Source: Treponemataceae bacterium
GTDB taxonomy: Bacteria; Spirochaetota; Spirochaetia; Treponematales; Rectinemataceae
Assembly (NCBI GenBank): GCA_963667725.2
Contig: CAXXHO010000004.1
Coordinates: 64,001-128,000, forward strand
Reading direction: 5' to 3'
Length of the DNA: 64,000 bases
The first letter of the stretch is position 1; the number at the start of each line of letters is the position of its first letter. Both the position numbers and the translations under genes were made by a program. Positions 1 to 43,192 of this stretch are shown here, piece after piece. The notes beneath the pieces were generated by a model. The model ran no database searches. It worked only from the letters and a program-made list of their open reading frames with translations, and was not told the origin of the DNA.

Positions 1-106
1 GGCGGCGTCGTGGGGGACGCCGCAAGCGCGCCGGGTGGGGGAGGTCGCGGCGGAATTTTTGCGGGATTTCTTTTACTTTACTGAACATTAGTGTAGAGTA
101 TCGCTG

Positions 107-790
107 ATGAAATTCGAGGATATCGTCCGAACCTTCGGCGACAAGCCCTGGTTCGACTTCGAGATGGCGCACCTCGTCTCGGGCGAGGCGGCGCCGTGCG
201 TCCATACGGAACTCTACCGCTGGCGGCAGGCGGGCAAGCTCGTCGAGCTGCGGCGGGGATTCTTCACGCTGGCCGAGCCTTGGCGGCGCCGTTCCCTGGA
301 CGGGGCGGAGCTGGCGGGGGGGCTGTACGAGCCCTCCTACCTGTCGGGGAGCTGGGCGCTGGCGAGGCTGGGAGCCTTGCCGGCGCCCGCGGGGCACACC
401 CCTGAAGGCTTGCCCCGCTACACCTCGGCGACGACGCGTCCGGCCGCGGTCTTTGAGAACGCCTTGGGGCGGTACGAGTACGCGGCGCTGCCGAGGGATT
501 TGATGTTCGGGATGACGCCCAGGGGCAATGGCGGCAGCGGCGGCAGCGGGGCGCCCGCGATAGCGGGCGCCGCCTGCGTTGCCACTCCCGAAAAGGCGCT
601 GCTGGACTGGTGGCTCATTGAAGGCGGAGACTGGGACGAGGGCCGCATGGAGGCCGCTGCTCTGAATCCAACGCCCATTAACCTTGAGCGGCTGAAGGCG
701 GCGGCGGACCGCGCGGGCCGTCCCAGGCTCGCGAAAGCGGTGCGGGCCTTCCGCCGCTACGCGGCGCGGAAAGGAGCGGCGCAATGCTGA
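107..790 (+). CDS. abiEi: AbiEi-like type IV TA antitoxin / transcriptional regulator
   Basis: N-terminal wHTH-like 'LYRWRQAGKLVELRRG', then 'LYEPSYLSGSWAL' and 'ATPEKALLD' motifs; overlaps the downstream AbiEii-like gene. Confidence 0.8.
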   Translation: MKFEDIVRTFGDKPWFDFEMAHLVSGEAAPCVHTELYRWRQAGKLVELRRGFFTLAEPWRRRSLDGAELAGGLYEPSYLSGSWALARLGALPAPAGHTPEGLPRYTSATTRPAAVFENALGRYEYAALPRDLMFGMTPRGNGGSGGSGAPAIAGAACVATPEKALLDWWLIEGGDWDEGRMEAAALNPTPINLERLKAAADRAGRPRLAKAVRAFRRYAARKGAAQC

Positions 791-1242
791 AAGACGAGAT
801 GCTCGCGCTGGCGGCCGCGGTTCCCGACTCCGAGGGGAAGCGCGCCGTCTTGCGGGATTGCCTGCAGGCCTCGGTGCTGCGGTCCTTCCACGAGGCCGAG
901 GCCTTCCTGTCCGTGGCGATCGCAAGCGAGGGCGCGGCGGGCCTCGAGTTCGCCCTTCTGGACAAGAAAGACTACAAGCCCGAGCGCTGGCTCTTCGCGG
1001 CCAAGCGCCGACTCTGGTTCATGGGGCTTGATCCGCGCATAGCCTTCGCGCGCAAGCTCTCGGTCCACCAGGGCTGGGTCAAGGTGCCCGGCCTCCTGGC
1101 GGAGGCGGGGCTGCCCGAGGACGCCGCGGATCCGCTGGGGGTCAGGATTCAGATCGCTTTGGCGCCGCCCGAGCATTGTGGTACCTCAGTGGCCATCGTG
1201 GAACGCTTTGGGCTGCGGTTTGGGATTAAGAGGACAGGATGA
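784..1242 (+). pseudogene. abiEii: Degenerate, truncated AbiEii-like nucleotidyltransferase toxin
   Basis: 'LRDCLQASVLRSFHEAEAF' resembles the AbiEii N-terminus, but the GGT...RxSxDLDF motif is absent. Only 152 aa; the stop codon lies inside hairpin repeat 1. Confidence 0.65.
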
Positions 1243-1396
1243 CGGGACCGGACAGGATTTACTGGGAGAATGTTTTTGGGTTAGGAGAACGCGCGGCTCT
1301 TCTCGCAGCCTGTCTCGTTTACCTATTTCTTTTCTTCTCTTTCTTTCTTAACCATAAGCTTTTTCCTGTCAGTCCTGATGGTCCTGTTGTCCTGTC
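1233..1396 (+). repeat. Long hairpin repeat, copy 1
   Basis: GACAGGATGAC...GGGTTAGGA...TCTTAACC...GTCCTGTTGTCCTGTC. Confidence 0.95.
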
Positions 1397-2075
1397 GTAG
1401 TATTCACGCCGATAAAGCCTAGGTAGGTGTCGCGGTTGACGCACTCGAAACCGGCGCCGGGATACGCGGCGGTCCAGGAAGCGGGCGGCCGGAGCGTCCG
1501 TTTGGCGAGCTTGAACTCGAAGCCGGCGAGGTTGCCTTCCGACTCCTCGACATAGTCGAGTTCGGCTCCCGTATGCGTGCGCCAGAACCATGCGCCGCCG
1601 TGCCAGCCCCGATAGGCGTTGTGCTTTCTCCGCTCGCCGACGAGGAAGTTCTCCCAGAGAGCGCCCTTGTCCGGCCTTAGCTCCCAGTCCTTGAAATCAT
1701 CGATCAGCGCGTTCCTGATTCCGTTGTCGTAGAAATAAATCTTGTCCTTGCGGGTCACTTCTTTCCTGAGGTTCCTGCCGTAGCCGCCGAGGCGGAAGAC
1801 GACAAAGGCCTTTTCGAGCAGGTCGATATAGGAGATCACCGTGTCGGCGCTCATGGAAGTTTGCCGGCCCAGTTCTTGATAGGAGACTTCAGATCCCACC
1901 TGATAGGCCAGGAGGCGCAGGAGGTCCCGAAGCTTGCGCGGGTTGCGGATGCCGCCCAGCTCGAGGACAGCTTCTCGCCAAGTTCGGGAAAGGCGATCGG
2001 ATAGAGCGTATAGGTTCGGGCGATGGAGAGGCTTGAGCGATCGCTCGACGTTCGGGATCGGTCCTAGTAGATGTT
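1369..2075 (-). pseudogene. Deletion remnant of an AAA_14/DUF4143 ATPase (paralog of 6947..8137)
   Basis: 3' half nearly identical to 6996-7568; 5' half reduced to short fragments; start codon lost. Confidence 0.9.
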
Positions 2076-2120
2076 ATGGCGCGATTTCATCGACTATGAA
2101 AGATGAAATGGTGAGAATTG

Positions 2121-2284
2121 GACAGGATGACAGGAATGGGACAGGATTAACAGGAAAGAGTTTTTGGGTTGGGAAAGAGGACACAGTGCGCTTCTCGGAG
2201 TTTGGCGCGGTTACCTATCGCCGCGCTTCTCTTTCTTGAGCAAAGGCGCTTTCCTGTGAGTCGTGGGGGTCCTGTCGTCCTGTC
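2121..2284 (+). repeat. Long hairpin repeat, copy 2 (loop type B)
   Basis: Same arms as copy 1 with a different central loop. Confidence 0.95.
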
Positions 2285-2285
2285 T

Positions 2286-2312
2286 AAAAGTTAAAAAATG
2301 GGGTCTGACCCC
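2286..2312 (+). repeat. Short REP-like motif AAAAGTTAAAAAAT-GGGGTCTGACCCC
   Basis: 13-bp palindrome with an A-rich leader; recurs at 3836, 8329, 9777, 15654 (minus strand), 21296 and 30684. Confidence 0.9.
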
Positions 2313-2315
2313 CTC

Positions 2316-3656
2316 TTAACGGCGCGCCAGCTTATTATTGACCGTATCCTTGTCGAAGCGATCCGGTGCCCAGCGGATCCTGGGAGCCGGCGAGGCGAAC
2401 AGCGTGGCCGAGGCTTCAGCACGAAGTTCCTTATAACCCTCGATGCCGCCGCAGTCTTCGGGGGGAGTAGCCATGGCGCCGTCCAGGCAGACGCAGCAGG
2501 AGGTCCAGGCTTCCTCGTCTTGGAACTTTTCCCGCGCCTTCACTTTTATGGAATGCACCCAGTCGTCGCCAAAATCGTAGGTGTATTCGAGCGTATGGCC
2601 CACCTTGAGCCTCAGTTCGTCGAGGCTGACGATATCGTCGGCGATGATCACTCGCTCCTCGTCGTCCGAGAGTTCGCCGAATATCGCATGGTCATAGCGA
2701 AACTCATGGAGGTGATAGTCTTCCCAGCCGAAGGCGTCCTGCAGGCAGCGATGGAGGTCGGCGAGGGTCCGGTTGCCGGGAATCCGGAGGGTTCTGAAGA
2801 TGCGCGGCTTGGTTCCTCGCAGGGCGACTTCCAGCACATAGCTGTACTTCGAGGGCATGTACCCCTGGCGGGAGAGGGTGGCATGGTTGGAATCACGGCC
2901 TTTCGCCGGTATTTTCCTGGCGTGCCGCCGAGAGGACATAAGGGCTTCCAGGTCATCGAGGGTGGCTAGGTACGCTTTAAGGCTGGCGTTGCCTTGTTTC
3001 AGCACTTCGGCGAGGCGCGCTTTATCGGAGCGCAGCGGCTCATCGAGCTGGTGGCACAGGTTGAGGAGCTCGTTCATTTTAACGAGGTGCGCGGCAAGCT
3101 GTTTTTCTTCAGCTTCCGATGCATCCTCCAGGCTGTGGCGGACGATGCGCATCCAGAGAAGGAAGCGTTCGAAAATATCCATCAGGGCTTCGCGGAGGTA
3201 GTTTGCCTGCGGGATCTCGATGATGGAGAAATCGATGGTATCGAGGAAAGCCTCCGCCGCGCCGCGCGCGCAGGCTCTTAGCGCTTTGCGCCCGGATTCA
3301 GGAATTCCCGTGAAACAGAGGCCCACGAGCGTTCGATCGATCGCCTTTTCAATGAGGCTTTCCCGAAGGGCCGAGTCCGATGCAAGCTTTTTCTTGGTGA
3401 ATGTGCCGATTGCCGCATAGTGTCCGAGTTCGACGGCGAGGAAGTGTTCGATATCGGCCGCATCCACCGATAGATCGTATTCCTCGGCGAGGTCATGAAA
3501 GGGATCCAGGGAAGGCAATGCGCCCTTGGTGATGTCCTGAAACATTTCCTGCATGAGGGCAAGCTCTTTGTCGGAGAGCCCCTCCAGCATGGCGTTGCAG
3601 GCATTGGTTATGGCCGCAGCATCGAGTGGGTCTTTGCTCTTTTTCATGGTTCCCAT
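2316..3656 (-). CDS. pRiA4b ORF-3 family protein with long N-terminal extension (copy A)
   Basis: C-terminal 'TLADLHRCLQDAFGWEDYHLHEF...YTYDFGDDWVH...PPEDCGGIEGY'. Confidence 0.85.
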   Translation of the reverse strand: MGTMKKSKDPLDAAAITNACNAMLEGLSDKELALMQEMFQDITKGALPSLDPFHDLAEEYDLSVDAADIEHFLAVELGHYAAIGTFTKKKLASDSALRESLIEKAIDRTLVGLCFTGIPESGRKALRACARGAAEAFLDTIDFSIIEIPQANYLREALMDIFERFLLWMRIVRHSLEDASEAEEKQLAAHLVKMNELLNLCHQLDEPLRSDKARLAEVLKQGNASLKAYLATLDDLEALMSSRRHARKIPAKGRDSNHATLSRQGYMPSKYSYVLEVALRGTKPRIFRTLRIPGNRTLADLHRCLQDAFGWEDYHLHEFRYDHAIFGELSDDEERVIIADDIVSLDELRLKVGHTLEYTYDFGDDWVHSIKVKAREKFQDEEAWTSCCVCLDGAMATPPEDCGGIEGYKELRAEASATLFASPAPRIRWAPDRFDKDTVNNKLARR

Positions 3657-3712
3657 GGGTGTTTACTTTATGCTGGTTCTTTGGTTTTTGCCAGAAGGTT
3701 TCTTGGGATGTG

Positions 3713-3833
3713 GACAGGATGACGGGACTGGACAGGATTTACGGGAAGGAGTTATGGGTTAGGAGGGAGCGCGGCTCTTCTTTCTTAGCTAAAAGCTTTT
3801 TCCTGTGGGTCCTGGGAGTCATGGGATCCTGTC
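3713..3833 (+). repeat. Long hairpin repeat, copy 3 (short loop), followed by a GGGGTCAGACCCC motif ending at 3862
   Basis: Arms conserved, loop shortened. Confidence 0.9.
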
Positions 3834-3853
3834 CTAAAAGTTAAAAATTGGGG

Positions 3854-5221
3854 TCAGACCCCATTTAGCAACCTTTCGGATTGTTCAACGAGGTAGAGGG
3901 GGAGGGAGAGAAGCTTAAAGGGCTGAGAGGGTTTCCCCGCGATCGAGGTCGTGGACTCAAGGCAAGAAGGCACGTCGTCGTTGAAACGCAACCCCAAGGA
4001 AGCGTTTTTCTCCTGGAGGAACACCTGGAGCGACCTGAGACGGCCTGTCTTGCCCGCCTTGACTTCGACGGGAACAACCCGGCTTCCCTGCTGGATGAGA
4101 TAATCCACTTCGGCCGTGGATCCCTTGTTCCGCCGGTTCCAATAGAAAAGCGAAGGCTCGTGATAGAACCCATTCCGGTATAAAAGATGCTGACCGATGA
4201 ACTGCTCCGCCATGGCGCCGGAATTGACAAGCGTCATATCCCTATCGCGCGGAAAGTCGGCTGCGTTGAGACCCAGAAAAGACGCCAGAAGCCCGATATC
4301 CAGAAAAACAAGTTTGAAGGATGAAGGATGGACCTCGGCTCCAAGGGGAATCCCGTTCCCATCCGAATGGAACACCCTGAACACGAGGCGCGCCTTCTCC
4401 AACAGATCCAGGCTCTCTCGCACCTGGATCGATCGAGCGAGAGGATTGAGGCTCGAGTATTTCGCCGTCTTGCCGATCGTCGCGGGAATATTCTTGAAGA
4501 CTGCCTGCAGCATCGGAACATCGGCTTTTCGCTTATACTTGCTGAAATCGGCATAGTAGGTGAGCAATAGGTTGCTCTGCGCGCGCGACGCGGCTTTCAA
4601 GTCCAGATCCGATTCTATGAAAGCCTTTACCACCCCCGGCAAGCCCCCAACCAGGAAGTACTCCCTCATGCAGGCTCGCGCCTTGGCATGAAGCGCTTCG
4701 GGAAGGCTTTGCGGAATTCGGTATTCGGAAAGGTACTCGCGCAGCTGCTCCTGTCCGCGAGCCAGGAGGAATTCCTCAAAACTCATGGGCCCCAGATACA
4801 TGAATTCGATTCTTCCGACGGGAACGGAATATTCCGGCGCGCCGAGCGAGAAATCCAAGAGGGAGCCCGCGGCGATCACATGGAGTTCCGGCATTTTTTC
4901 GTAGAAATAGCGGAGCTTGGCGAGAACCGCGGGAACCGCTTGAATTTCATCAAGGAAAAGAAGGGTCTTCCCCGGGACTATCTTCTCGGAAGCATCGACT
5001 TCGATAAGCCGCACGATGGTCCGGACATCAGGCTCGTCGAAAAGGCTCGCTTTTTCGGGATCTTCATCGAAATTGATTTCCACGACCGAATCGAATGCCT
5101 GGCGCGCGAAGATCCGCACAAGCTCCGTTTTTCCCACTTGCCGGGCTCCGCGCAGTACGAGAGGTTTTCTGTCGGGCCTTACGCGCCACTGCGCGAGAAA
5201 ATCGAAGGCGAAGCGTATCAT
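3854..5221 (-). CDS. AAA_14 ATPase with DUF4143 C-terminal domain
   Basis: Walker A GARQVGKT, Walker B LFLDEIQ, 'VGGLP', C-terminal 'EVDYL...PVEVKAG'. Confidence 0.9.
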   Translation of the reverse strand: MIRFAFDFLAQWRVRPDRKPLVLRGARQVGKTELVRIFARQAFDSVVEINFDEDPEKASLFDEPDVRTIVRLIEVDASEKIVPGKTLLFLDEIQAVPAVLAKLRYFYEKMPELHVIAAGSLLDFSLGAPEYSVPVGRIEFMYLGPMSFEEFLLARGQEQLREYLSEYRIPQSLPEALHAKARACMREYFLVGGLPGVVKAFIESDLDLKAASRAQSNLLLTYYADFSKYKRKADVPMLQAVFKNIPATIGKTAKYSSLNPLARSIQVRESLDLLEKARLVFRVFHSDGNGIPLGAEVHPSSFKLVFLDIGLLASFLGLNAADFPRDRDMTLVNSGAMAEQFIGQHLLYRNGFYHEPSLFYWNRRNKGSTAEVDYLIQQGSRVVPVEVKAGKTGRLRSLQVFLQEKNASLGLRFNDDVPSCLESTTSIAGKPSQPFKLLSLPLYLVEQSERLLNGV

Positions 5222-5228
5222 GAAATTG

Positions 5229-5257
5229 ATTATGCACTATTTACCTAGTATTTTCAA
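5229..5257 (-). promoter_or_regulatory. Sigma70-type promoter for a probable leaderless mRNA
   Basis: On the minus strand: TTGAAA-17 nt-CATAAT-7 nt-ATG. Confidence 0.7.
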
Positions 5258-5285
5258 CATTTTTTGCTATTATTATAGGATATTT

Positions 5286-5453
5286 GACAGGATGACAGGA
5301 ATGGGACAGGATTAACAGGAAAGAGTTTTTGGGTTAGGAAGGAGAACGCGCGGCTCTTCTCGCAGCCTGTCTCGTTTACCTATTTCTTTTCTTCTCTTTC
5401 TTTCTTAACCAAAAGCTTTTTCCTGTCAGTCCTGATGGTCCTGTCGTCCTGTC
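5286..5453 (+). repeat. Long hairpin repeat, copy 4
   Basis: Loop nearly identical to copies 1 and 5. Confidence 0.95.
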
Positions 5454-6748
5454 GCCTTATTGAGCAGGGAGAGCGCGTAGAGGGGGATGTTCGTCAGCCA
5501 GCTTTGTTCGCGGTAGGGCGACAGCGAGGTTCGAAAAGCGCGCGGGGGCGAAAACTTGTCGTAATAGACGCGGAGGCTCTTGGCTTGCAGGTTTTCCGCC
5601 GCTTTTACTTCGAGGGGGTAAACAGAACCTTGGGCCTGAAGCAAAAAATCGACCTCAGCCCGGGAGGTGTCGCTCGACCAGTATGAGGCATCCATTTCTT
5701 CCATGAGACACAATTCCTGCGCGACATATTGCTCGGTCAGCGCGCCCTTGAATTCCTCGAAAAGGGCGTTCCCCCGCAATACCGCCTGCATCGGCAAGCC
5801 CGCATGCGCCGCCAGCAGCCCGATATCAAGCATGTAGAGCTTGAACGCGTTGAGCTCCTGATATGCCTTGAGCGGAAGCCCGGGCTTCGAGACTCTGAAG
5901 ATTTTGCGCGACAAGCCCGCATCGCAAAGCCACTCGATCGCGGATTCATATTCTCTCGCCCTGGCGCCCTCGCGGACGAGTCCGTACACGAATTTTTTCT
6001 GTTCCCGGGCCAATTGGGCCGGCAGGGAATTCCAGACCGCCCGGATCCGAGGGACCGTGTCTGGTTTCGCGTATTTCGAAAAATCCCGTTCATAGGCTTC
6101 AAGCAGCGCTTTCTGGAAGACGCGGACCTTGTCGAGATCCTTGGTTTCCACGAAGGTGACCACGCTCTCCGGCATGCCGCCGACGCAATAGTAATAGCGC
6201 AGGGATTCGGTCAGCTTTTCCCTGAACGCATCGATCATGGACCAGTCGCCTGATGCGACAAGGTCCGCCAGCTCAGGCTCGCCGATGGCTTTCAAGAATT
6301 CCAGGAAGGAGAGCGGATAGAGATTCAAGAAGTCGACTTTGCCGACGGGGAAGGAAGTGTCCGCATGCAGCGAGATCCCCAGGAGCGATCCTGCCGCGAT
6401 AAGGTGGTACTGGGGAGCATTCTCATAAAAATACTTGAGCGAGGTGAGGGCCTTTGGGTTCGCCTGGACTTCGTCGAATACGATGAGCGTCTTTTCAGGC
6501 TCGATGGGCACGCCCGTCTCCACGCGCAAGCCCATGAGGAGGCGCGCAGGGTCCACGTTGGAGGAGAAAAGCGTTGTCATACGCTCATTGGACTCGAAAT
6601 TTATATAGGCGATGTTTTGGTAGATGCTTTTGCCGAATTCTTTGAGCAGCCATGTTTTGCCGACTTGGCGGGCGCCGTTCAGGACGAGAGGTTTTCTGCG
6701 CGGATCACGTTGCCACGCCAGCAGGGCTGAGAGGGCTTTTCTTTCCAT
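5426..6748 (-). CDS. AAA_14 ATPase with DUF4143 domain
   Basis: GARQVGKT, IVFDEVQ, VGGMPE, EVDFL...PLEVKA; last residues encoded by repeat 4. Confidence 0.9.
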   Translation of the reverse strand: MERKALSALLAWQRDPRRKPLVLNGARQVGKTWLLKEFGKSIYQNIAYINFESNERMTTLFSSNVDPARLLMGLRVETGVPIEPEKTLIVFDEVQANPKALTSLKYFYENAPQYHLIAAGSLLGISLHADTSFPVGKVDFLNLYPLSFLEFLKAIGEPELADLVASGDWSMIDAFREKLTESLRYYYCVGGMPESVVTFVETKDLDKVRVFQKALLEAYERDFSKYAKPDTVPRIRAVWNSLPAQLAREQKKFVYGLVREGARAREYESAIEWLCDAGLSRKIFRVSKPGLPLKAYQELNAFKLYMLDIGLLAAHAGLPMQAVLRGNALFEEFKGALTEQYVAQELCLMEEMDASYWSSDTSRAEVDFLLQAQGSVYPLEVKAAENLQAKSLRVYYDKFSPPRAFRTSLSPYREQSWLTNIPLYALSLLNKATGRQDHQD

Positions 6749-6769
6749 ACTATAAGTGTATTGCGGGTC

Positions 6770-6797
6770 ATCACAAAAGTGTAGCCTCTTTTGTGAT
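6770..6797. promoter_or_regulatory. Inverted-repeat operator candidate upstream of the ATPase gene
   Basis: ATCACAAAAG-N8-CTTTTGTGAT. Confidence 0.55.
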
Positions 6798-6830
6798 TAG
6801 TTGAACAAAAGTCGTACAAGTTTTGTGTTT

Positions 6831-6995
6831 GACAGGATGACAGGAATGGGACAGGATTTACAGGTAGGAGTTTTTGGTTAGGAAGGAGAACGCGGCTCTT
6901 CTCGCAGCCTGTCTCGTTTATTTATTTCTTTTCTTCTCTTTCTTTCTTAACCAAAAGCTTTTTCCTGTGGGTCCTGACGGTCCTGTCGTCCTGTC
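6831..6995 (+). repeat. Long hairpin repeat, copy 5
   Basis: Conserved arms and type A loop. Confidence 0.95.
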
Positions 6996-8137
6996 TTAGT
7001 ATTCACGCCGATAAAGCCTAGGTAGGTGTCGCGGTTGACGCACTCGAAACCGGCGCCGGGATACGCGGCGGTCCAGGAAGCGGGCGGCTGGAGCGTCCGT
7101 TTGGCGAGCTTGAACTCGAAGCCGGCGAGGTTGCCTTCCGACTCCTCGACATAGTCGAGCTCGGCTCCCGTATGCGTGCGCCAGAACCATGCGCCGCCGT
7201 GCCAGCCCCGATAGGCGTTGTGCTTTCTCCGCTCGCCGACGAGGAAGTTCTCCCAGAGAGCGCCCTTGTCCGGCCTTAGCTCCCAGTCCTTGAAGTCGTC
7301 GATCAACGCGTTCCTGATCCCGTTGTCGTAGAAATAGACCTTATCCTTGCGGGTCACTTCTTTCCTGAGGTTCCTGCCGTAGCCGCCGAGCCGGAAGACG
7401 ACAAAAGCCTTTTCAAGCAGGTCGACATAGGAGATCACCGTGTCGGCGCTCATGGAAGTTTGTCTGCCTAATTCCTGATATGAGACTTCCGATCCCACTT
7501 GATAGGCCAGAAGGCGCAGGAGATCCCGAAGCTTCCGCGGGTTGCGGATGCCGCCCAGCTCGAGGACATCCTTGTACAGGTATGCGGAACTCAATTCCAG
7601 AAGGTGCGCGACTTTGTCGGCTTTCGCGCCCATGCTGAAAAGCGCGGGATACAGCCCGAGCACGAGGCATTCGGGCAGACTCCCCTCGAGCTCGAAGGGA
7701 GACAGCTTTTCGCCAAGCTCGGAAAAGGCGATCGGATAGAGCGTATAGGTCCAGGTTCGCCCCGTGAGTGCTTCGGTGGCGGTTCGGGCGATGGAGAGGC
7801 TCGAGGAGCCCGTCACCAGGAGCGAGCCGGGGAAGCCTTCGTCGTAGAGCAGCTTGAGCGCCCGCTCGACGTTCGGGATGTGCTGCGCCTCGTCGACGCA
7901 GACGAGATCGAAGCCGGCGATTTGCCCTTTGATCATGCGAAGATCGCTCGAAGCCCAGAGCTCCTGTACGCGCGGATCCTCGCCGTTGACCATGATGGTT
8001 TTGCCTTCGAAGCTCCGCATCGCAGCCCGGGCAAGGGTTGTCTTGCCGCATTGCCGAGGCCCATAAAGAAGCACTATGCGCCGGTCGGTCCGCAGGCGGT
8101 GCTGGAGTATCCCTAAGAGCGCTCTATCGATGTTCAT
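6947..8137 (-). CDS. AAA_14 ATPase with DUF4143 domain
   Basis: GPRQCGKT, CVDEAQ, TGSSS, GALWEN, ELDYV...FEFK. Confidence 0.9.
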   Translation of the reverse strand: MNIDRALLGILQHRLRTDRRIVLLYGPRQCGKTTLARAAMRSFEGKTIMVNGEDPRVQELWASSDLRMIKGQIAGFDLVCVDEAQHIPNVERALKLLYDEGFPGSLLVTGSSSLSIARTATEALTGRTWTYTLYPIAFSELGEKLSPFELEGSLPECLVLGLYPALFSMGAKADKVAHLLELSSAYLYKDVLELGGIRNPRKLRDLLRLLAYQVGSEVSYQELGRQTSMSADTVISYVDLLEKAFVVFRLGGYGRNLRKEVTRKDKVYFYDNGIRNALIDDFKDWELRPDKGALWENFLVGERRKHNAYRGWHGGAWFWRTHTGAELDYVEESEGNLAGFEFKLAKRTLQPPASWTAAYPGAGFECVNRDTYLGFIGVNTKTGRQDRQDPQEKAFG

Positions 8138-8144
8138 AATAGAT

Positions 8145-8181
8145 ATTATAACGCGATTTCATCGACTATGGAAGATGAAAT
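8145..8181 (-). promoter_or_regulatory. -10 box plus inverted-repeat operator candidate
   Basis: TATAAT 7 nt upstream of the ATG; ATTTCATC-N10-GATGAAAT at 8156-8181. Confidence 0.6.
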
Positions 8182-8192
8182 TGTGTGAATTG

Positions 8193-8326
8193 GACAGGAT
8201 TTACAGGTAGGAGTTTTGGGTTAGGAAGGAGAGCTCGGCTTTTCTCCTAACCCTTTTTTATATTCTCTTTTCTTCTCTTCTCTTTCTTAACTAAAAGCTT
8301 TTTCCTGCTAGTCCTGGGATCCTGTC
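8193..8326 (+). repeat. Long hairpin repeat, copy 6, followed by a GGGTCAGACCCC motif ending at 8354
   Basis: Shorter arms, same core. Confidence 0.9.
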
Positions 8327-8357
8327 GTAAACTTCAAAATTAGGGTCAGACCCCGCT

Positions 8358-9698
8358 TTAACGACGCTCCAGCTTTTTGTTGACCGCGTCTTTGTCGAAG
8401 CGCTCCGGGACCCAGCGAATCCTGGGAGTCTTGGGGACGAACAGCGTGGCCGATGCCTCCGCTCGGAGTTCCTTATAGCCCTCGATGCCGCCGCAGTCTT
8501 CGGGGGGAGCGGCCATGGCGCCGTCCATGCAGACGCAGCGGGAAGTCCAGGCTTCCTCGCCTTGGAGCTTGTCCCGCGCCTTTACTTTTATAGAATGCAC
8601 CCAGTCATCACCGAAATCGTAGGTGTATTCGAGCGTATAGCCTACCTTGAGCCCAAGCTCGTCGAGGCTGACGATGTCGTCGGCGATGATCACGCGTTCC
8701 TCCTCATCCGAGAGCTCGCCGAATATCGCATGGTCATAGTGAAACTCATGGAGGTGATAGTCTTCCCAGCCGAAGGCGTCCTGCAGGCAGCGATGGAGGT
8801 CGGCGAGGGTCCGGTTGCCGGGGATGCGGAGGGTTCTGAAGATGCGCGGCTTGGTTCCCCGCAGGGCGATTTCCAGCTCATAGTAATACTTCGAGGGTAT
8901 GTACCCCTGGCGGGAGAGGGTGGCATGGTTGGAATCACGGCCTTTCGCCGGTATTTTCCTGGCGTGCCGCCGAGAGGACATAAGGGCTTCCAGGCCATCG
9001 AGGGTGGCGAGGTACGCTTTAAGGCCGGCCTGGCCTTGTTTCAGCACTTCGGCGAGGCGCGCTTTGTCGGAGCGCAGTGTTTCGTCGAGCTGATAGCACA
9101 GGTTGAGGAGCTCGTTCATTTTGGCGAGGTGCGTGGCGAGCTGTTTTTCTTCAGCTTCAGACGCTTCGTCCAGGTTGTGGCGAACGATGCGCATCCAGAG
9201 AAGGAAGCGTTCAAAAATCTCCATAAGGGCTTCGCGGAGATAGTTTGCCTGCGGGTTCTCAATGATGGAGAGATCGATGCCATCGAGGATGGCCTCCGCC
9301 GCGCCGCGCGCGCAGAGCCTCAGCGCTTTGCGTCCGGATTCGGGAATGCCCGTTACGCAGAGGCCCACGAGCGTTCGATCGATCGCACTTTCCATGAGCC
9401 GTTCCCGAAAGGCCGGGTCGGAGGCGAGCTTTTTCTTGGTGAGTTTGCCGATTGCCGCATAGTGTCCGAGTTCGACGGCGAGGAAGTTTTCAATATCGGC
9501 CGCATCAACCGAAAGGTCGTATTCCTCGGCGAGGTCGTGAAAGGGGTCGCGGGAGGGCAATGCGCCCTGGGTGATGTCTTGAAGCATTTCCTGCATGAGG
9601 GCCAGCTCTTTATCGGAGAGTCCCTCCAGCATGGCATTGAAGGCATTGCCGATCGTCGCGGCATCGAGGGGGTCTCTGCTCTTTTTCGTGGTTCCCAT
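8358..9698 (-). CDS. pRiA4b ORF-3 family protein (copy B)
   Basis: Colinear 446-aa paralog of 2316..3656. Confidence 0.85.
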   Translation of the reverse strand: MGTTKKSRDPLDAATIGNAFNAMLEGLSDKELALMQEMLQDITQGALPSRDPFHDLAEEYDLSVDAADIENFLAVELGHYAAIGKLTKKKLASDPAFRERLMESAIDRTLVGLCVTGIPESGRKALRLCARGAAEAILDGIDLSIIENPQANYLREALMEIFERFLLWMRIVRHNLDEASEAEEKQLATHLAKMNELLNLCYQLDETLRSDKARLAEVLKQGQAGLKAYLATLDGLEALMSSRRHARKIPAKGRDSNHATLSRQGYIPSKYYYELEIALRGTKPRIFRTLRIPGNRTLADLHRCLQDAFGWEDYHLHEFHYDHAIFGELSDEEERVIIADDIVSLDELGLKVGYTLEYTYDFGDDWVHSIKVKARDKLQGEEAWTSRCVCMDGAMAAPPEDCGGIEGYKELRAEASATLFVPKTPRIRWVPERFDKDAVNKKLERR

Positions 9699-9739
9699 GG
9701 GTGTTTACTCTATGATGTTTCTTTGGTTTTTGCCAGAAG

Positions 9740-9804
9740 GTTTTCCTGGTAGTCCTGATGGTCCTGCTATCCTGTTAAAAAGTTGAAAATTGGGGTCTGA
9801 CCCC
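9740..9804 (+). repeat. Right-arm-only copy of the long repeat plus GGGGTCTGACCCC motif
   Basis: TTTCCTGGTAGTCCTGATGGTCCTGCTATCCTGT-AAAAAGTTGAAAATTGGGGTCTGACCCC. Confidence 0.8.
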
Positions 9805-9808
9805 GAAG

Positions 9809-11122
9809 CTAGAGCGCCCACCAGGGGATGGCGGTGACTGTGTCGCTTATGCGAAGGGGATACGGGGCACGGCAAACGATGTATCCCTGAGGCGCGACGG
9901 CCTTATGATCCTGCAGGAACGCCTCGAGATGGCGCGCATCCTTTTTTGTCGGGTTTTCCGTCCATTTCACCTCTATCGGGACAAGCGCTCCCGCACGCTC
10001 CACGATAAAATCAATCTCAGCTCCGCCCGCGGTGCGATAATAGCTGAGTTTCGCGTCTCCGCGATAGGCAAGCCTCTTATAGAGCTCTATGCCCACCCAT
10101 TGTTCAAAAAGAGGGCCCGGGTTCGCGAGCACCGTGTCCGGACCGAAGGAAAGCCCCGCCAGCGCATTCCGCACGCCGAGATCGATGAAAAAGAATCGGG
10201 GGCTGGAAAGCGCGGTCTTGCGCGGGCTTCCGGAAAAAGCGGGTACCGTGAATCCAAGAAACATGTCCTCGAGAAGCTGATAATGCGCCTTGATCGTGGG
10301 CGAGGAGACTCCCGATTCTTTGGCGATCCCTGAAAAGTTGACAATGCTCCCCGATTCGGCGGCCGCGAGCGACAAGAATCGCAGGAAAGGCCCCCACGCC
10401 CTTATCTGCGCTTCCCGATGAAGCTCCTCCTCGACATACGCGCCCGCATAGGCGCGAAGCACGTCGCTCCTATCGGAGCGCTCGACCGCAATTCCGGGAA
10501 GATCGCCAAAAGTCATCCTATCCTCGAGGCTCCTCGGCGGAAAGGGTATCTTCAGGGAAGGTTCATCCTGAAGACAGGGAAGCAGGCTTCGCCTTCCGGC
10601 GAGTCGGTCGATAGGATATCCCACGGGGATCGTTTGTTCGTACTCGGCGCTGGTGAGCGGATAGAGTCGATGCATGAAGCTTCTGCCGGGGAGCAAATTG
10701 GCGCCGATGCGCCTGAGCCGCCGCGCCGAGCTCCCGCAAAGTATGAAACGGCTGCGCCGCTCTTCCGGCAAAATTCGTTTTTCCTCATCGTAAAGAAATT
10801 GGACCGCATCGAAAAGCTCCGGTACGGTTTGGGCCTCGTCAAGGAAGACCCATCGCGGAGTACCCGCGCGAGGGTTCCCCGAATCGGGGAGCGCTCGGTA
10901 AAGATCGATGAACCTCCCGGGAGCGGCGGCGAACCGCATCCGCAGGGAGGGATCGGAAAAATCGAAGACGAGCGCATCGGAGGGAATACAGCTTCTAATG
11001 AGCGTCGATTTCCCCGTTTGACGAGCGCCGAACATGATATGGACATAGGGCGCCGCCAATTTTTTAGAAAACTCCCCGAAATAAAGTCGATCGAACAGTT
11101 CCATATCCGAATCATCGAACAT
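9809..11122 (-). CDS. AAA_14 ATPase with DUF4143 domain
   Basis: GARQTGKS, FLDEAQ, CGSSARRL, EIDFI...PIEVKW. Confidence 0.9.
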   Translation of the reverse strand: MFDDSDMELFDRLYFGEFSKKLAAPYVHIMFGARQTGKSTLIRSCIPSDALVFDFSDPSLRMRFAAAPGRFIDLYRALPDSGNPRAGTPRWVFLDEAQTVPELFDAVQFLYDEEKRILPEERRSRFILCGSSARRLRRIGANLLPGRSFMHRLYPLTSAEYEQTIPVGYPIDRLAGRRSLLPCLQDEPSLKIPFPPRSLEDRMTFGDLPGIAVERSDRSDVLRAYAGAYVEEELHREAQIRAWGPFLRFLSLAAAESGSIVNFSGIAKESGVSSPTIKAHYQLLEDMFLGFTVPAFSGSPRKTALSSPRFFFIDLGVRNALAGLSFGPDTVLANPGPLFEQWVGIELYKRLAYRGDAKLSYYRTAGGAEIDFIVERAGALVPIEVKWTENPTKKDARHLEAFLQDHKAVAPQGYIVCRAPYPLRISDTVTAIPWWAL

Positions 11123-11195
11123 TTGCCCAGAATTGTAAACTATTACTTTAAATAATTTGAGTATTTTTAAAGTGTTGCTTTTAATTTGTTGACAA

Positions 11196-11374
11196 GACAG
11201 GATTACAGGATGGGACAGGATTTACAGGAAGGAGTTTCGGGTTAGGAAAGAGGACGCTGCGCGCTTCTCGGAGCTTGGCGCGGTTACCGCGGTTACCTAT
11301 CGCTGGACTTCTCTTTCTTGACCAAAGGCGCTTTCCTGTAGGTCCTGAAGGTCCTGTCGTCCTGTCGTCCTGTC
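11196..11374 (+). repeat. Long hairpin repeat, copy 7 (loop type B)
   Basis: Conserved arms with an extra GTCCTGTC unit. Confidence 0.95.
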
Positions 11375-11460
11375 CTTGGGCTTCTTGAATTACGGGAAGC
11401 CGCGGAGATACTTAAACTTATCGGAGTTTCCATTTTCCACGCATCACCGCCTGGGAGGAA

Positions 11461-12438
11461 ATGATGAACAAAAAGGCTACCCGGCATTTTGGATTCCCGT
11501 CGATCATCCTGGCGCTCCTCGCGCTGGCGGCATGGGGCGCGCTGGCCGCCTGCAGCCTGGACACCTACGAACCCAAGGAAAACGAAGTGAAGGTGACCAT
11601 CTCGGGCCTGGGCGACAAGGCCGTCCTTGCCCGCGAAAGCCTTGGCGCCGAGAAGGCGCGGGGCTTCGCGGCGTCCTGGGTGAAGGTGGCGGTGATCGAC
11701 GGCGACGGCGCCCAAACCGGATCGGGCAGCCTCGCCCTGGAGAACGGCGTCTGGGAAGGCTACGTCCAGCTGTCCGGCCCGGGCGCGATGACCTTCATCG
11801 TCTCCGCCGGAACGGCGGCAGACCAGGTCTCGTGGATGGGCAACGGCGCCCTGACCGTCGGCGGGAAAGGCCAGGAGATCACCGTGACGGTGACGGTGCC
11901 CGCCCTCGGCGCGAAGGGCCCCGCCGGCGGCTCGATCTTCTACGACAAGGGCAGCTACTCGAACGGCTGGCGATACCTGGAAGCCTCGCCCACCGACACC
12001 GCGGCGACGGCCTCCGTTTCCGACAATGGGTACCGGCTCTGGGCGGCCCAGACAACCTATGTCGTGGGCAACACCTACGCGGGGATCGGCTACGGCAAGG
12101 AGAACACGGACTGGATCCAGGCCGCGGGCAACGCCACGATGTACCCGGCCGCCTGGTATTGCGCCGAATTGGAATGCGGCGGCGCGGCCGACTGGTTCCT
12201 GCCCTCGTGGGACGAGCTTGCCGAGATGCGGAAGGTCATCGGCCACGCCGGCTTCCATGTCGAGTATCAAGGCGCCTTTTGGTCTTCGACCGAGCGGACG
12301 GCCCTGGACGGCGGCACGGACGCGGCCTACTACGTCTACACAGACGCCTACAAGACGACGAAGGGTCCGGCGCTGAAGACCAACGCGGACGTGTACGTGA
12401 AGGCCGCGCGGCGGTTTTTATGTAAGAGGACAGGATGA
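11461..12438 (+). CDS. Lipoprotein with DUF1566/C-type-lectin-like C-terminal domain
   Basis: Signal peptide with lipobox LAAC; 'GPAGGSIFYDKG...WRYLEA', 'DWFLPSWDEL', 'FWSSTE', 'VKAARRF'. Confidence 0.7.
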   Translation: MMNKKATRHFGFPSIILALLALAAWGALAACSLDTYEPKENEVKVTISGLGDKAVLARESLGAEKARGFAASWVKVAVIDGDGAQTGSGSLALENGVWEGYVQLSGPGAMTFIVSAGTAADQVSWMGNGALTVGGKGQEITVTVTVPALGAKGPAGGSIFYDKGSYSNGWRYLEASPTDTAATASVSDNGYRLWAAQTTYVVGNTYAGIGYGKENTDWIQAAGNATMYPAAWYCAELECGGAADWFLPSWDELAEMRKVIGHAGFHVEYQGAFWSSTERTALDGGTDAAYYVYTDAYKTTKGPALKTNADVYVKAARRFLCKRTG

Positions 12439-12593
12439 CGGGAATGGGACAGGATTTACTGAGAGAATGTTTTTGGGTTAGGAAAGACGACGTTGTGCGC
12501 TTCTCGGGGACTGGCACGGTTGCCTATCGCCGCGCTTCTCTTTCTTGACCAAAGGTTCTTTCCTGTAGGTCCTGATGGTCCTGTCGTCCTGTC
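12429..12593 (+). repeat. Long hairpin repeat, copy 8 (loop type B)
   Basis: Conserved arms; supplies the stop codon of the lipoprotein gene. Confidence 0.95.
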
Positions 12594-12645
12594 AGATTCC
12601 CGAAGAGGGAGCCGGACCATCGGGCTGGCTGCGCTAGCGCTTCAG

Positions 12646-12984
12646 TCATGCCTTTGAGAGTTCGTTTTCAAGCGCTTTCTGCATGAGCTGGTTCAGGGAG
12701 ATCCCCTGCTCCACCGCCGTTCGCTTTGCTCTTTTATGCAGTTCGGGCGATATTCTCACGTTGAAGCTTCCCTTATAGGATTTTTCAGTTTCCTTTTCCT
12801 CTCGCTTGCAGGTTTCAAGATAGTCTTCAACGGATTCCTTAAAGGCGGATTTGAGGGCGTCGACGCTTTTCGCCTCAAAGGTCACCAAGTCGTCTATCCC
12901 TTCCAGCTTGCCATAGAAGATTTCGTCTTCAGCGCAGTAATGTACCGAGCCCATATAGTCTTTATAGGTAAGAACGTCTTTCAT
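12646..12984 (-). CDS. hicB: HicB family antitoxin (orphan)
   Basis: 'YKDYMGSV...FYGKLEGIDDLVTF...VEDYL...YKGSFNVRISPELH...GISLN'. Confidence 0.9.
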   Translation of the reverse strand: MKDVLTYKDYMGSVHYCAEDEIFYGKLEGIDDLVTFEAKSVDALKSAFKESVEDYLETCKREEKETEKSYKGSFNVRISPELHKRAKRTAVEQGISLNQLMQKALENELSKA

Positions 12985-12998
12985 TGTCTTTATTATAC

Positions 12999-13157
12999 GA
13001 CAGGACTACGGGATGGGACAGGATTTACAAGAAGGAGCTTTTAGGTTAGGAGGGCGCGCGGCGCTTATCGGAGCCTATTTAGGTTATGCATACTTGCTCT
13101 TCTCTTTCTTAACCAAAGGTTCTTTCCTGTAGGTCCTGATGGTCCTGTCGTCCTGTC
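12999..13157 (+). repeat. Long hairpin repeat, copy 9
   Basis: Conserved arms, divergent loop. Confidence 0.9.
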
Positions 13158-13537
13158 GTGGTTTTGGGCGTGTAGTCGCGGTACTTGCGCTTGAAGGTGA
13201 TGTCCTGGGGGCCGAAGTTGATCACGAGGCCGGTGGGGGTGTCCGTGGCCTTGAGGTAGTTCACGAGCTGGACTTCGTGGGCTTTGGCGATGGCCTCGAC
13301 GGCTTTGAGCTCGAGGATCACGCGGCCTTTGACGATGACGTCGGCGAAGAAGGAGCCGATGACGGTTCCGTCGTAGAAGACGTCGATGGGCGCCTCGATG
13401 ATGAAGGGCAAGGCGGCTTTGTGCAGTTCCATGGCCATGGCTTGCTTGTAGACGGATTCCAGGAAGCCGGCGCCGAGGGTGTTGTACACCTTGAACGCGC
13501 ACCCGATGATTTTTTCCGTGAGCGGGTCGTCGATCAT
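13109..13537 (-). CDS. GxxExxY protein (PD-(D/E)XK nuclease superfamily)
   Basis: 'LGAGFLESVY', 'ADVIV...ILELKA', 'QLVNYLKAT...GLVINFG'. Confidence 0.92.
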   Translation of the reverse strand: MIDDPLTEKIIGCAFKVYNTLGAGFLESVYKQAMAMELHKAALPFIIEAPIDVFYDGTVIGSFFADVIVKGRVILELKAVEAIAKAHEVQLVNYLKATDTPTGLVINFGPQDITFKRKYRDYTPKTTTGRQDHQDLQERTFG

Positions 13538-13581
13538 GCTAATATTCCGCGCAAAGATAGGGCTCTTGATTCAAATAATTG

Positions 13582-13744
13582 GACAGGACGACAGGAATGG
13601 GACAGGATTCACAGGAAGCGTTTTTGGGTTAAGAGAGCGCGCGGCTCTTCTCTTAACCCTTTTTCATTTTCTCCGCTCTTCTCTTCTCTTTCTTTCTTAA
13701 TCAAAAGCTTTTTCCTGTCAGTCTTGGGGTCCTGTTATCCTGTC
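13582..13744 (+). repeat. Long hairpin repeat, copy 10
   Basis: Conserved arms; supplies the stop codon of the CocE gene. Confidence 0.95.
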
Positions 13745-15618
13745 CTACTAGGAAGGAAGAGGCGGGAGGGGTGCTCCGGCCCCAGATGCAGGGCGTTCGT
13801 CGCCGCACGCCAGGTGCGGGAGGAGCCCTCGGGCTCGCCTGTGTTGGGGTTGACGTCGAAGTGGGGGAAGTTGGAGCTGGAGACGTCCAGCCGGATGCGG
13901 TGGCCGGCGGCGAAGAGGTTGCTGGTGGGGAAGGCGCGCACCGTGACCCTGTAGATCCTGCCGGGCTGCAGGGGCTCGGGCGATTCCCAGGAGTCGCGGT
14001 AGCGGGCGCGCAGGATGCCGTCCGTGAGGTTCATGGCGAAGCCGCGGGGATAGTCGGCGGAGGGCGGGTAGACGTCGATCAGCTTGATGGTGAAGTCGGT
14101 GTCCGGGCAGTCGGAGGAGATCCAGAGCTCGGCCTCGATGGGGCCGGTCACCTCGAGGGCGCTCGCCAGGGGCTCGGTTTGGAAGACGAGGATGTCGGGG
14201 CGCGCCGCGAGGGGGAGGCCGGGGTGGGAGCAGCCGAAGAAGCGTTCGTCTTCGACTTGGTCGAAGGCGCCGCCGCGCATGATGGGTTCGCCGGAGGTGA
14301 TGGAGCCGCCGATGGAGGGGACGGGGTCGCGGGGGTCGTAGCGGTAGGCGATCGAGGTTTCCTCTTGTGGCGGCGTGTCGCCCAGGAGCCCGCCGGGGAG
14401 GAGGTGGAGGGCTCGGCGCTCGGCGTCGGGCAGGGGCCAGTCGGGGGCGCTGCGCCATTCGCCGCCGTGCTCGAGCCGGCCCTGGGCGTTTTTGCGGCCG
14501 GAGCCGCCGCCCATGCGGAAATAGCGCACAGGGAGATCGGATTGGGCCGCGCCGGAGGCGGGGGCTTTGAGCCAGCGGTCGAACCAGGTGAGGCGGAGCT
14601 GGAGGAAGTCGGGGGCCACGTTCCCCTCCAGGGGGGCGCGGGGGCCGAAATCGACGTCGCCCGCATAGGTGAGGCAGCGGTCGCCGTGGGTCCAGGGGCC
14701 AAGGATGAGGGCCAGGGGGCCTTTGCCTCGCCGCTTGAGGTCCTGGTAGTTCTCGGTGGCGGTGCGGGGGTAGGGGTCGTACCAGCTGGACATGTGGACC
14801 ATGGGGATGGCCGCGAAGCCGTCCATGTAGGCGGCGGCGCAGATGCCGAGCCGGCGCCAGAATTCGTCGTACCGGCCGTGGCCCCACTGCTCCAATAAAT
14901 AGTCCTCGAAGTCGGGGAGCCAGCGCAGGGGGGACTGGCCGGCGCGCCAGGGGAGGGCGCGGAACCAGGCGCGGATGTGGGCGAATTCGGACTCCAGCGC
15001 GCCCTTGACGAGGGGGTCGGCAGCGGCCTCGGGGCTCTGGATGGCCTGGCGCATGGCCCAGGTGGCCTGCTTGAGCTCGAAGGCCCCGCCCTGCCTGATG
15101 CCGCCCTGGTAGGCGTCGTGAAAGCCGCCGGAGTCGACGAACATGGCCTTGAGGGCGGTGGGCGCCAGGCAGGCGGCGGCCACTTGGGTGTGGGCCGCAT
15201 AGGAGAGGCCCATAGTGCCGACCTTGCCGTCACACCAGCTCTGGGCGGCGATCCAGGCGATGGCGTCGTAGCCGTCCTCGCCTTCGGAGAGGTATTTGGT
15301 GAAGGTTCCTTCCGAGCGGTGGGTGCCGCGGCAGTCCTGGTAGACGAAGGCGTAGCCCCGCTCGACGAAGTAGGCGGCCACTTCAGCGCGGCCGAGGGGC
15401 TGGGGGTTGGCGACGCTCCGCTCCGAGCGGGAGGGGGCGGTTTTGTCGTAGGGGGTGCGCTCGAGGATGACGGGGAAAGACCCTGGGAGAGCGGCTTGGC
15501 CGCCGCTCTCCCCGCCGGCCGCGGCGGGCAGGTAGACGTCGGTGGCGAGGCGGACGCCGTCGCGCATCGGGACCATGACGTTGGAAAGGAGCACGTAGGT
15601 TTTCTTCGTTTCGGGCAT
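13735..15618 (-). CDS. CocE/NonD family hydrolase (peptidase S15)
   Basis: 'MRDGVRLATDVYLP', 'RTPY', nucleophile 'GLSY', 'GPWTH', 'SSNFPHFD'; RBS GGAGG before MPETKK. Confidence 0.9.
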   Translation of the reverse strand: MPETKKTYVLLSNVMVPMRDGVRLATDVYLPAAAGGESGGQAALPGSFPVILERTPYDKTAPSRSERSVANPQPLGRAEVAAYFVERGYAFVYQDCRGTHRSEGTFTKYLSEGEDGYDAIAWIAAQSWCDGKVGTMGLSYAAHTQVAAACLAPTALKAMFVDSGGFHDAYQGGIRQGGAFELKQATWAMRQAIQSPEAAADPLVKGALESEFAHIRAWFRALPWRAGQSPLRWLPDFEDYLLEQWGHGRYDEFWRRLGICAAAYMDGFAAIPMVHMSSWYDPYPRTATENYQDLKRRGKGPLALILGPWTHGDRCLTYAGDVDFGPRAPLEGNVAPDFLQLRLTWFDRWLKAPASGAAQSDLPVRYFRMGGGSGRKNAQGRLEHGGEWRSAPDWPLPDAERRALHLLPGGLLGDTPPQEETSIAYRYDPRDPVPSIGGSITSGEPIMRGGAFDQVEDERFFGCSHPGLPLAARPDILVFQTEPLASALEVTGPIEAELWISSDCPDTDFTIKLIDVYPPSADYPRGFAMNLTDGILRARYRDSWESPEPLQPGRIYRVTVRAFPTSNLFAAGHRIRLDVSSSNFPHFDVNPNTGEPEGSSRTWRAATNALHLGPEHPSRLFLPSRTG

Positions 15619-25117: not shown

Positions 25118-25301
25118 GACAGGACGACAGGAGGGGACAGGATTTACAGGAAATGTGTTTAGGTTAAGAGAACACGCGGCTCTTCTCTTAACCCTTTTTT
25201 TATTTCCATTTCTTCTCTTCTCTTTCTTTCTTAACCAAAAGCTCTTTCCTGTCAGTCCTGAGGAGTCCTGGGATCCTGTCGTGGAGTCCTGTCGTCCTGT
25301 C
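25118..25301 (+). repeat. Long hairpin repeat, copy 11
   Basis: Lies between divergent genes; extra arm units. Confidence 0.95.
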
Positions 25302-26588: not shown

Positions 26589-26767
26589 GACAGGACGATA
26601 CGACAGGACGACAGGACTAGACAGGATCTACAGGAAATGTGTTTGGGTTAAGAGAACGCGCGGCTCTTCTCCTAACCTTTTTTTTAATCTTTTCTTCTCT
26701 TCTCTTCTCTTCTCTTTCTTAACCAAAAGCTCCTTCCTGTCAGTCCTGTGTTTCCTGTCGTCCTGTC
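26589..26767 (+). repeat. Long hairpin repeat, copy 12
   Basis: Fills almost the whole gap between convergent genes. Confidence 0.95.
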
Positions 26768-36810: not shown

Positions 36811-36973
36811 GACAGGATGACAGGATAAGAGGACAGGATTTACAGGAAAAGGACTTTGGTTAGGATAGCGTTTTCTTCGCATCCTGTTATCGCGTCTTTC
36901 TTCTTCTCTCTTTCTTCTCTTCTCTCAACCAAAAACTCTTTCCTGCCAGTCCTGCTCATCCCGTTATCCTGTC
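36811..36973 (+). repeat. Long hairpin repeat, copy 13
   Basis: More divergent copy inside a peptidase operon. Confidence 0.9.
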
Positions 36974-40630: not shown

Positions 40631-40689
40631 CGGATTAGTGTAACCCGACCGGCGAGTACTGACCAGGGGCCTCATCCGGAGCGTCGCTC

Positions 40690-43140: not shown

Positions 43141-43192
43141 GGCCCATCACCCCTGGCCTCACCAGCCACCCAAGTCCCGACAATCACGCCGA

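Follow-up and report, generated by a model that had tools for sequence, protein, structure and literature searches.

Hairpin repeats around GxxExxY genes: comparative evidence for a cognate protein-repeat pair in a spirochaete genome and its relatives

Two described systems in which an enzyme gene lies within inverted repeats are REPIN-RAYT (Bertels and Rainey 2011, PMC3116915) and TIRtron-TIRYT, for which the TIRYT tag is given as GGGGWSAS (Di Nocera et al. 2013, PMC3733652). Here we analyse a stretch of 64,000 nucleotides from a Treponemataceae bacterium (contig CAXXHO010000004.1 of assembly GCA_963667725.2, positions 64,001 to 128,000; hereafter the window, or G000:C4:64001-128000, with G000 for the source genome), in which a GxxExxY gene at 13109..13537 on the minus strand is enclosed by two hairpins of a larger array. 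The source is probably a free-living spirochaete, as its close homologs carry the labels Rectinemataceae or Spirochaetia. The original prediction, made from the sequence alone, had likened this layout to REP-RAYT and supposed that the encoded protein may cut or spread the hairpin and drive the insertion of units. As far as the accounts of the two systems describe them, the GxxExxY loci share with them an enzyme gene in inverted repeats, dispersed copies without the gene, repeat flavours specific to the enzyme and a low gene copy number, so the likeness holds for the architecture. It does not hold for the enzyme, which is unrelated: GxxExxY is a PD-(D/E)XK protein with Cas4/RecB-like residues and not a Y1 HUH enzyme, and its arms are made of tandem 8-10-bp units, unlike the single short palindromes with GTAG, CGTC or GGGGWSAS tags. 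A further difference is that no strand-transfer chemistry is known for GxxExxY.

On the whole, the comparison of sequences speaks strongly for a cognate protein-repeat pair. Our preferred reading, which we hold to be evenly poised, is that GxxExxY is the cognate cutter of its flanking repeats and works with host repair, in a REPIN-RAYT-like way but through an unrelated enzyme. The protein would bind the tandem ACAGGAT arms and would nick or cut at them, after which the hairpin, alone or together with the gene, would be copied by host repair to fresh junctions between genes. In the spirochaete family, the hairpins would double as sites of recombination for a row of defence-like genes that lacks an integrase, and the part of the enzyme in these arrays would be at most to stimulate exchange. 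Because motif and protein clade covary, binding of the arms is probably sequence-specific; cleavage and host-completed insertion may follow it, a step we put forward with less confidence, and nothing evident in the protein points to a chemistry for joining strands.

Flanking motifs and protein clades

A GTDB scan confirmed 584 relatives; for the best 80 of them, 79 loci were obtained, and 76 were scored after one family duplicate and two split genes had been dropped. Within 200 nt of the gene, 71 of the 76 relatives have a tandem ACAGGAT arm (motif A) on one side or both, and 64 have it on both, with about 20 phyla represented. Control open reading frames (ORFs) of the same loci, at least 700 bp away, have such an arm on at least one side in 28 of 277 cases and on both sides in 6, and shuffled flanks in 8 and 0 of 1520. 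Among GxxExxY genes of other clades, one of 42 has it on at least one side and none on both; this control omits six loci, namely four clade-A-like or broken genes together with the loci L140 and L145. In addition, of 30 DUF4143 ATPase loci in four other genomes, one has a motif-A arm. The expectation that GxxExxY homologs are repeat-flanked more often than other genes is thus borne out (64/76 vs 6/277). The commonest layout is a gene within the loop of an inverted repeat, present in 43 of the 76 relatives (35 in strict form and 8 with an extra arm), and full hairpins on both sides, as in the window, are a minority.

The other GxxExxY clades have arms of their own, of the types CAC(A/G)GAG or CGCAGAG, CACGAA, CGC(C/A/G)AAG, or C(A/G)CAGAT, and the CACRGAG-type arms of the C clade are called motif C below. 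In a tree of 137 proteins, many forks of which are unresolved, the motif class needs 23 changes, compared with a mean of 48 after shuffling (0 of 200 shuffles are as low). The nearest protein from another phylum shares the motif class in 108 of 128 cases (shuffled mean 63, maximum 85 of 2000), and in 21 of 41 when only non-A genes are taken, for a sample that is mostly class A and with permissive class patterns. Consequently, the co-phylogeny of protein and repeat for which the original prediction had asked is seen, the motif following the protein clade. Besides these, 20 Planctomycetota loci, taken from 91 matches for their high scores or for the motif-rich genomes they lie in, have tandem arms by eye without exception, and their arms form a continuum of variants. 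Viral contigs gave 33 matches to patterns specific to the window clade, none of them encoding a relative. By these flanks, each GxxExxY clade is given a predicted DNA substrate.

The repeat counts of whole genomes follow the clades in part. Among 61 genomes of the family, which are kin and not independent, the 9 with the window clade have 10-91 motif-A matches, and the 7 that have this clade alone show 0-3 matches of motif C. The 17 genomes with only other GxxExxY clades have 0-6 matches of motif A and up to 197 of motif C, and the 35 without GxxExxY have 0-40 of motif A. Among 81 Planctomycetota genomes, all 8 with at least 3 motif-A matches have some GxxExxY gene (8/39 with the gene vs 0/42 without). 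Gene and repeat are linked very strongly at the locus, and in part at the level of the whole genome.

The window gene and its protein

The ORF, read from 13537 to 13109, encodes 142 amino acids. Its product matches PF13366 with 131.6 bits (cut-off 22), which is its sole Pfam match, and TIGR04256 with 136.2 bits (cut-off 35); it carries the signature G24-F-L-E27-S-V-Y30 and so belongs to the GxxExxY/PDDEXK_3 family. The D...ELK motif reported earlier is intact as D66 and E76-L-K78, the catalytic-type residues, and near-invariant: all 137 relatives keep D66 and E76, 99% keep K78, and E27, D66, E76, K78, Q90 and Y94, the last two forming a QxxxY element, are each conserved in at least 99% of the 137 proteins.

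The AF2 model has a pLDDT of 87.8. Its best Foldseek match is the Cas4 protein SSO0001 (E 5e-5, TM ~0.45), and VIA gives BpuSI (Z 8.6, rmsd 2.6, 95 aligned), SSO0001 (Z 8.4, 3.4, 101) and Hjc (Z 6.9, 3.0, 84), with tRNA splicing endonucleases matching weakly at Z ~6. The VIA matches are nearly tied and indicate, for this model, the fold rather than a function. Since the matches of both methods are mostly PD-(D/E)XK nucleases and the active-site residues are present, the small PD-(D/E)XK fold assumed at the outset is well supported. A sequence search of the PDB found no solved relative, all 30 ESM Atlas matches are PF13366 members, and neither Pfam, TIGR04256 nor Foldseek indicates a DDE, HUH or recombinase-type transposase domain. 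PADLOC has no match for the protein. The family is very large, with at least 7977 matches at E <=1e-10 among 7998 candidates scored. A search for specificity residues found columns that differ by clade, which are inseparable from ancestry. In the literature, the family function is given as 'Unknown' with multiple transfers (PMC3424549), the same source names TnsA and YhgA/Rpn as PD-(D/E)XK proteins in transposition, and a paper on an RT pipeline mentions a cas4 gene labelled GxxExxY.

The spacing reported for the window gene agrees with the ORF and hairpin coordinates: its start lies 44 bp from hairpin 10 (13582..13744, 163 bp) and its 3' end 49 bp inside hairpin 9 (12999..13157, 159 bp, with inverted arms of tandem GACAGGA(T/C)-type units). 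The final 16 codons fall within hairpin 9, so that the arm encodes a C-terminal tail, and pLDDT is below 50 at residues 126-141. The tight enclosure is real and not unique, as the ATPase at 6947-8137 is just as tight (-49/35 bp) and two further cargo ORFs overlap hairpins by 28 bp; enclosure was dropped as evidence in itself. The host-like GC-rich codons, said to set the gene apart from the ATPases, fared similarly. In the window, the G+C content at third codon positions (GC3) of the gene core is 0.91, against 0.91-0.92 in three host genes and 0.65-0.76 in four ATPase cargo genes, but a second G000 copy has 0.68 (a lipoprotein cargo gene has 0.87), and the codons were given up as a family trait. 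This second copy is 84% identical to the window gene and hairpin-enclosed at the head of the array on contig C5; both G000 copies are thus boxed by hairpins, with dN/dS = 0.07 between them, and the reading frame of the second ends short of its hairpin. The window gene had also been called the last unit of its array, which is true in plus-strand coordinates, and in the direction of transcription it is the first.

Arrays, insertion sites and alternative explanations

G000 holds three hairpin arrays, on contigs C4, C5 and C6, and 91 strict matches of the tandem motif (1 for the reversed control). The window has 13 hairpins of 121-184 bp, 10 of which form its array; their inverted arms hold 2-4 GACAGGA(T/C)-type units in tandem, and their ends read GACAGGA...TCCTGTC. 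In 150-nt windows the hairpins fold better than chance with z of -3.2, -1.5, -2.2 and -2.9. Hairpin 1 (1233..1396) bounds the array beside an AbiEi-like gene pair (107-1242), and next to it lies a 5'-truncated duplicate (1369..1899, minus strand) of the DUF4143 part of the ATPase at 6947-8137. Then come hairpin 2 (2121..2284), the first PRiA4_ORF3 copy (2316..3656, minus strand, a profile match), hairpin 3 with a short loop (3713..3833) and an AAA_14/DUF4143 ATPase (3854..5221, minus strand). This and the other ATPases are PDC-S01 in PADLOC. Hairpin 4 (5286..5453) is followed by a second ATPase (5426..6748, minus strand), which recurs in the C5 array and, at a different rank, in the C6 array, and hairpin 5 (6831..6995) by the tightly enclosed third (6947..8137, minus strand). 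Hairpin 6 (8173..8326) has an eroded outer unit, and beyond it are the second PRiA4_ORF3 copy (8358..9698, minus strand, a profile match), the fourth ATPase (9809..11122, minus strand), hairpin 7 (11196..11374), a lipoprotein-like gene on the plus strand (11461..12438, with a weak Lcl_C match below the curated cut-off), hairpin 8 (12429..12593) and an orphan hicB (12646..12984, minus strand). Hairpin 10 is the boundary with a host hydrolase gene. Array cargo in G000 comprises AAA_14/DUF4143 ATPases, PRiA4_ORF3, HicAB and the AbiEi-like pair. Three solo hairpins without a gene lie at 25118..25301, 26602..26767 and 36819..36973. Apart from these, an unrelated family of seven copies of ~97-112 bp forms two tandem clusters at 40685-41026 and 42650-43173.

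The array is variable. Window region 1-40000 recurs as a second haplotype on contig C6, with 93% identity over 15.9 kb and the same anchors around an array filled differently; the assembly therefore mixes strains (its contamination is 6.26%). There, a hairpin stands at the place of hairpin 10 and hicA-hicB follows this boundary hairpin, at the place of the orphan hicB, with hicA replacing the GxxExxY gene and hairpin 9. One contig of run X6, among four runs compared, joins 11349 to 12577, skipping the lipoprotein unit and one hairpin; its short side has 255 letters, 17 letters are shared at the joint, and 15 differences are found over ~4.1 kb. Other joints in read contigs were left out for short sides or for running from repeat to repeat. 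Exchange between hairpins seems to occur at several positions, because the arms of a hairpin and its loop do not share their nearest neighbour in a set of 15 hairpins, and a fixed crossover point is unsupported. As to other genomes, L260 (G056:C25:7000-26000), from another genus, is a 14-kb array of more than 10 hairpins, whose cargo belongs to families also found in the window: ATPases, GxxExxY, an AbiE-like pair and PRiA4_ORF3. L266 (G055:C167) has tandem near-identical 1857-bp units, each a 520-residue ORF with hairpins, and suggests amplification between hairpins. At another chromosomal site, L254 (G011:C208) has, in this order, GxxExxY, an eroded hairpin, the start of a truncated hicA, and hicB, an adjacency of GxxExxY and hicB common to L254 and the window.

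There are also signs of mobility. Two operon junctions, by their translations probably those of a topoisomerase B-A pair (9 bp apart) and of the lysine pathway, are empty in G000 and carry arm-gene-arm in relatives (6 and 5). In G090:C15 (L276:2-2401), a GxxExxY cassette with its arms interrupts a Ser/Thr kinase in frame. It lies in the activation segment, with the DWG motif on one side and GTPAYM on the other, and the reading frame is open across both arms; nearer the start of the domain, the same kinase ORF holds another short insert that likewise resembles a repeat. The insertion sites are many and unrelated, some of them common within a family, unlike the single target of a homing endonuclease.

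G000 also provides a repeat-enzyme pair of the known kind. Two Y1 HUH genes (PF01797) are enclosed by a palindrome of another kind, GGGGTC[AT]GACCCC, which fits the TIRYT tag GGGGWSAS as given by Di Nocera et al. (PMC3733652). The palindrome family AAGTTAAAAA-N-GGGGTC[AT]GACCCC has 36 loose matches in G000, with sites at window positions 2300 (after hairpin 2), 3850 (after hairpin 3), 8342 (abutted by hairpin 6), 9792, 15654 and 21306, and at G000:C4:25146-25982 and C5:694833-695672; five copies begin 13-15 bp past an ACAGGAT arm. At the five Y1 loci of G000, no ACAGGAT hairpin is present in the flanks examined. The Y1 palindrome pair is thus an in-genome example of the known layout, and the ACAGGAT hairpins are left without an HUH partner. 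A Y1 transposase or integron integrase beside the arrays was considered and none is found at the three arrays of G000. The three integron integrase genes of the genome, with long N-terminal extensions and then AT-rich cassette-like DNA, lie at G000:C7:37069, C1:34408 and C5:550880.

Several observations weigh against a cognate cutter. L140 and L145 lie outside the clade yet are motif-A-flanked. Five of the 35 family genomes without the gene, 76-97% complete, carry 10-40 motif-A matches, and a re-search of these five at E <=1 found no GxxExxY gene; the two motif-A-richest Planctomycetota (64 and 36 matches) have GxxExxY genes flanked by other motifs only, and the five best-scoring sampled Planctomycetota genomes after the centre have 0-2 motif-A matches. 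Repeat-rich relatives without a detectable cognate gene, which the original prediction had named as telling against it, are therefore seen in five family and two Planctomycetota genomes, and the outcome for the correlation with copy number that it sought is mixed: in the spirochaete family, copy number follows the cognate clade, with the five genomes as exceptions. No target-site duplication is seen by eye in 35 G000 hairpins or between 11 filled and 2 empty sites, pairs too diverged for a firm negative, and no fixed end junction of the hairpins was found. Moreover, the hairpins are mosaics of arms and loops, GxxExxY is absent from the C6 array and from the examined array stretches of G013, G033 and G055:C167, and in G056 and G043 it stands mid-array like any cargo, so that a rule that it always heads the array, which holds in two of three G000 arrays, was given up. 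Finally, genes of the PF05635 four-helix bundle lie in inverted arms of tandem short units, as judged by eye from 21 of the 30 loci (L194-L223, G061-G065), with units of 6-8 nt, of many kinds and with other motifs than those of GxxExxY. These proteins are not known to be nucleases, and the layout alone is therefore no proof of a nuclease role. Because of the mosaics, the arrays without GxxExxY and the PF05635 layout, it is less likely that GxxExxY drives cassette insertion in the window array than that the host recombines hairpins there, perhaps with some stimulation from GxxExxY.

The same observations bear on three other explanations. GxxExxY might be ordinary cargo, with hairpins spread and shuffled by host recombination, gene conversion or an enzyme in trans (Y1 HUH or integron integrase); gene and motif would then covary only through moving jointly. 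The mosaic hairpins, the one-unit deletion with 17 shared nt, repeat-rich genomes and arrays without the gene and the equally tight ATPase all agree with this, as do the presence of 9 of 36 Y1-type palindromes within 120 bp of an ACAGGAT arm and the three integrases. We nevertheless consider it unlikely: an 8-bp tandem motif is kept on both sides of proteins down to ~50% identity in ~20 phyla, a retention that needs selection tied to GxxExxY. For DUF4143 cargo, the link is missing outside spirochaete arrays (1 of 30 loci); the palindrome of the Y1 genes is a different one, and none of the integrases neighbours an array. Alternatively, the protein could bind its sites without mobilising them, either to regulate its own gene or as a nuclease of addiction or defence that the sites mark or titrate, with the repeats spread otherwise. 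This accounts for the clade-motif link and purifying selection and for the orphan repeat-rich genomes, and it suits the defence-like neighbours (PDC-S01, AbiEi, HicB) and PF05635, no known nuclease, with the same layout. It leaves unexplained the solo copies that track the cognate clade and the in-frame kinase insertion, and PADLOC has no match for the protein; we rate it improbable too. The arms might also pair in the transcript and be excised by RNase III or the encoded protein, as in ORF-bearing intervening sequences of rRNA. The gene-in-loop layout at operon junctions, PF05635 with the same layout and a name taken from 23S rRNA intervening sequences, and the weak fold matches to tRNA splicing endonucleases speak for this. 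Against it, gene-in-loop pairs fold better in sense in 9 and in antisense in 19 of 32 cases (C-type 11 vs 9 of 20), all 10 array hairpins of the window fold better as plus-strand RNA, opposite nearly all cargo, and the frame is open across both arms in G090; strand-specific folding, true in G000 arrays, fails as a general rule across phyla. Rfam gave nothing above its gathering score, and in window 1-15000 only a sub-threshold miRNA model, so no rRNA gene. An RNA origin is, in our judgement, very unlikely. If the enzyme mobilises the hairpins, the repeat-enzyme pair would belong to neither the HUH nor the DDE transposases and would explain where abundant intergenic repeats in understudied phyla come from.

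Comparison with known systems

Cas4/RecB nucleases such as SSO0001 (PDB 4IC1), the best Foldseek match, share the E...D...ExK and QxxxY residues with GxxExxY, which differs from Cas4 in its ~125 amino acids, a single cysteine without an evident Fe-S cluster and no CRISPR context. PF05635 shares the small gene inside inverted arms of tandem units at operon junctions, with an unrelated fold and different motif families; one of its arm units resembles the cyanobacterial STRR2 heptamer, and G000 has no PF05635 match. In the open-access literature searched, no account is found of the GxxExxY-repeat link, nor of the PF05635 layout outside rRNA.

Insertion sequences (IS) and miniature inverted-repeat transposable elements (MITEs) have terminal inverted repeats with multiple units like binding sites, and non-autonomous derivatives. 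GxxExxY loci resemble them in a single gene within terminal inverted repeats (the 43 of 76 above) and in gene-less derivatives. Unlike them, GxxExxY loci encode neither a DDE domain nor a partner transposase, target duplications are not seen, there are 1-2 copies per clade per genome, and residence at sites shared across genera is long.

Integron cassette arrays consist of attC sites served by IntI, with the attC core consensus RYYYAAC...GTTRRRY. Judged by reading their ends, the hairpins do not have this consensus; in addition, no integrase adjoins any of the three arrays and crossovers apparently fall at several positions. The likeness lies in the pairing of each imperfect hairpin with one gene or operon, in cargo that is mostly co-oriented, defence-like and variable between strains, and in G000 array hairpins that are more stable on the non-coding strand. 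A wider reading, tentative and on the doubtful side, would take GxxExxY proteins as the cognate enzymes of a selfish hairpin class that spans the whole family, with a stand-alone nuclease of ~125 residues and clade-specific recognition of tandem sites that inserts its hairpin at operon junctions and even in frame within genes, and would make the strain-variable arrays of free-living spirochaetes an integron analogue built by nuclease and host repair. If so, these arrays would represent a second route, besides integrons, to shuffled rows of defence genes.
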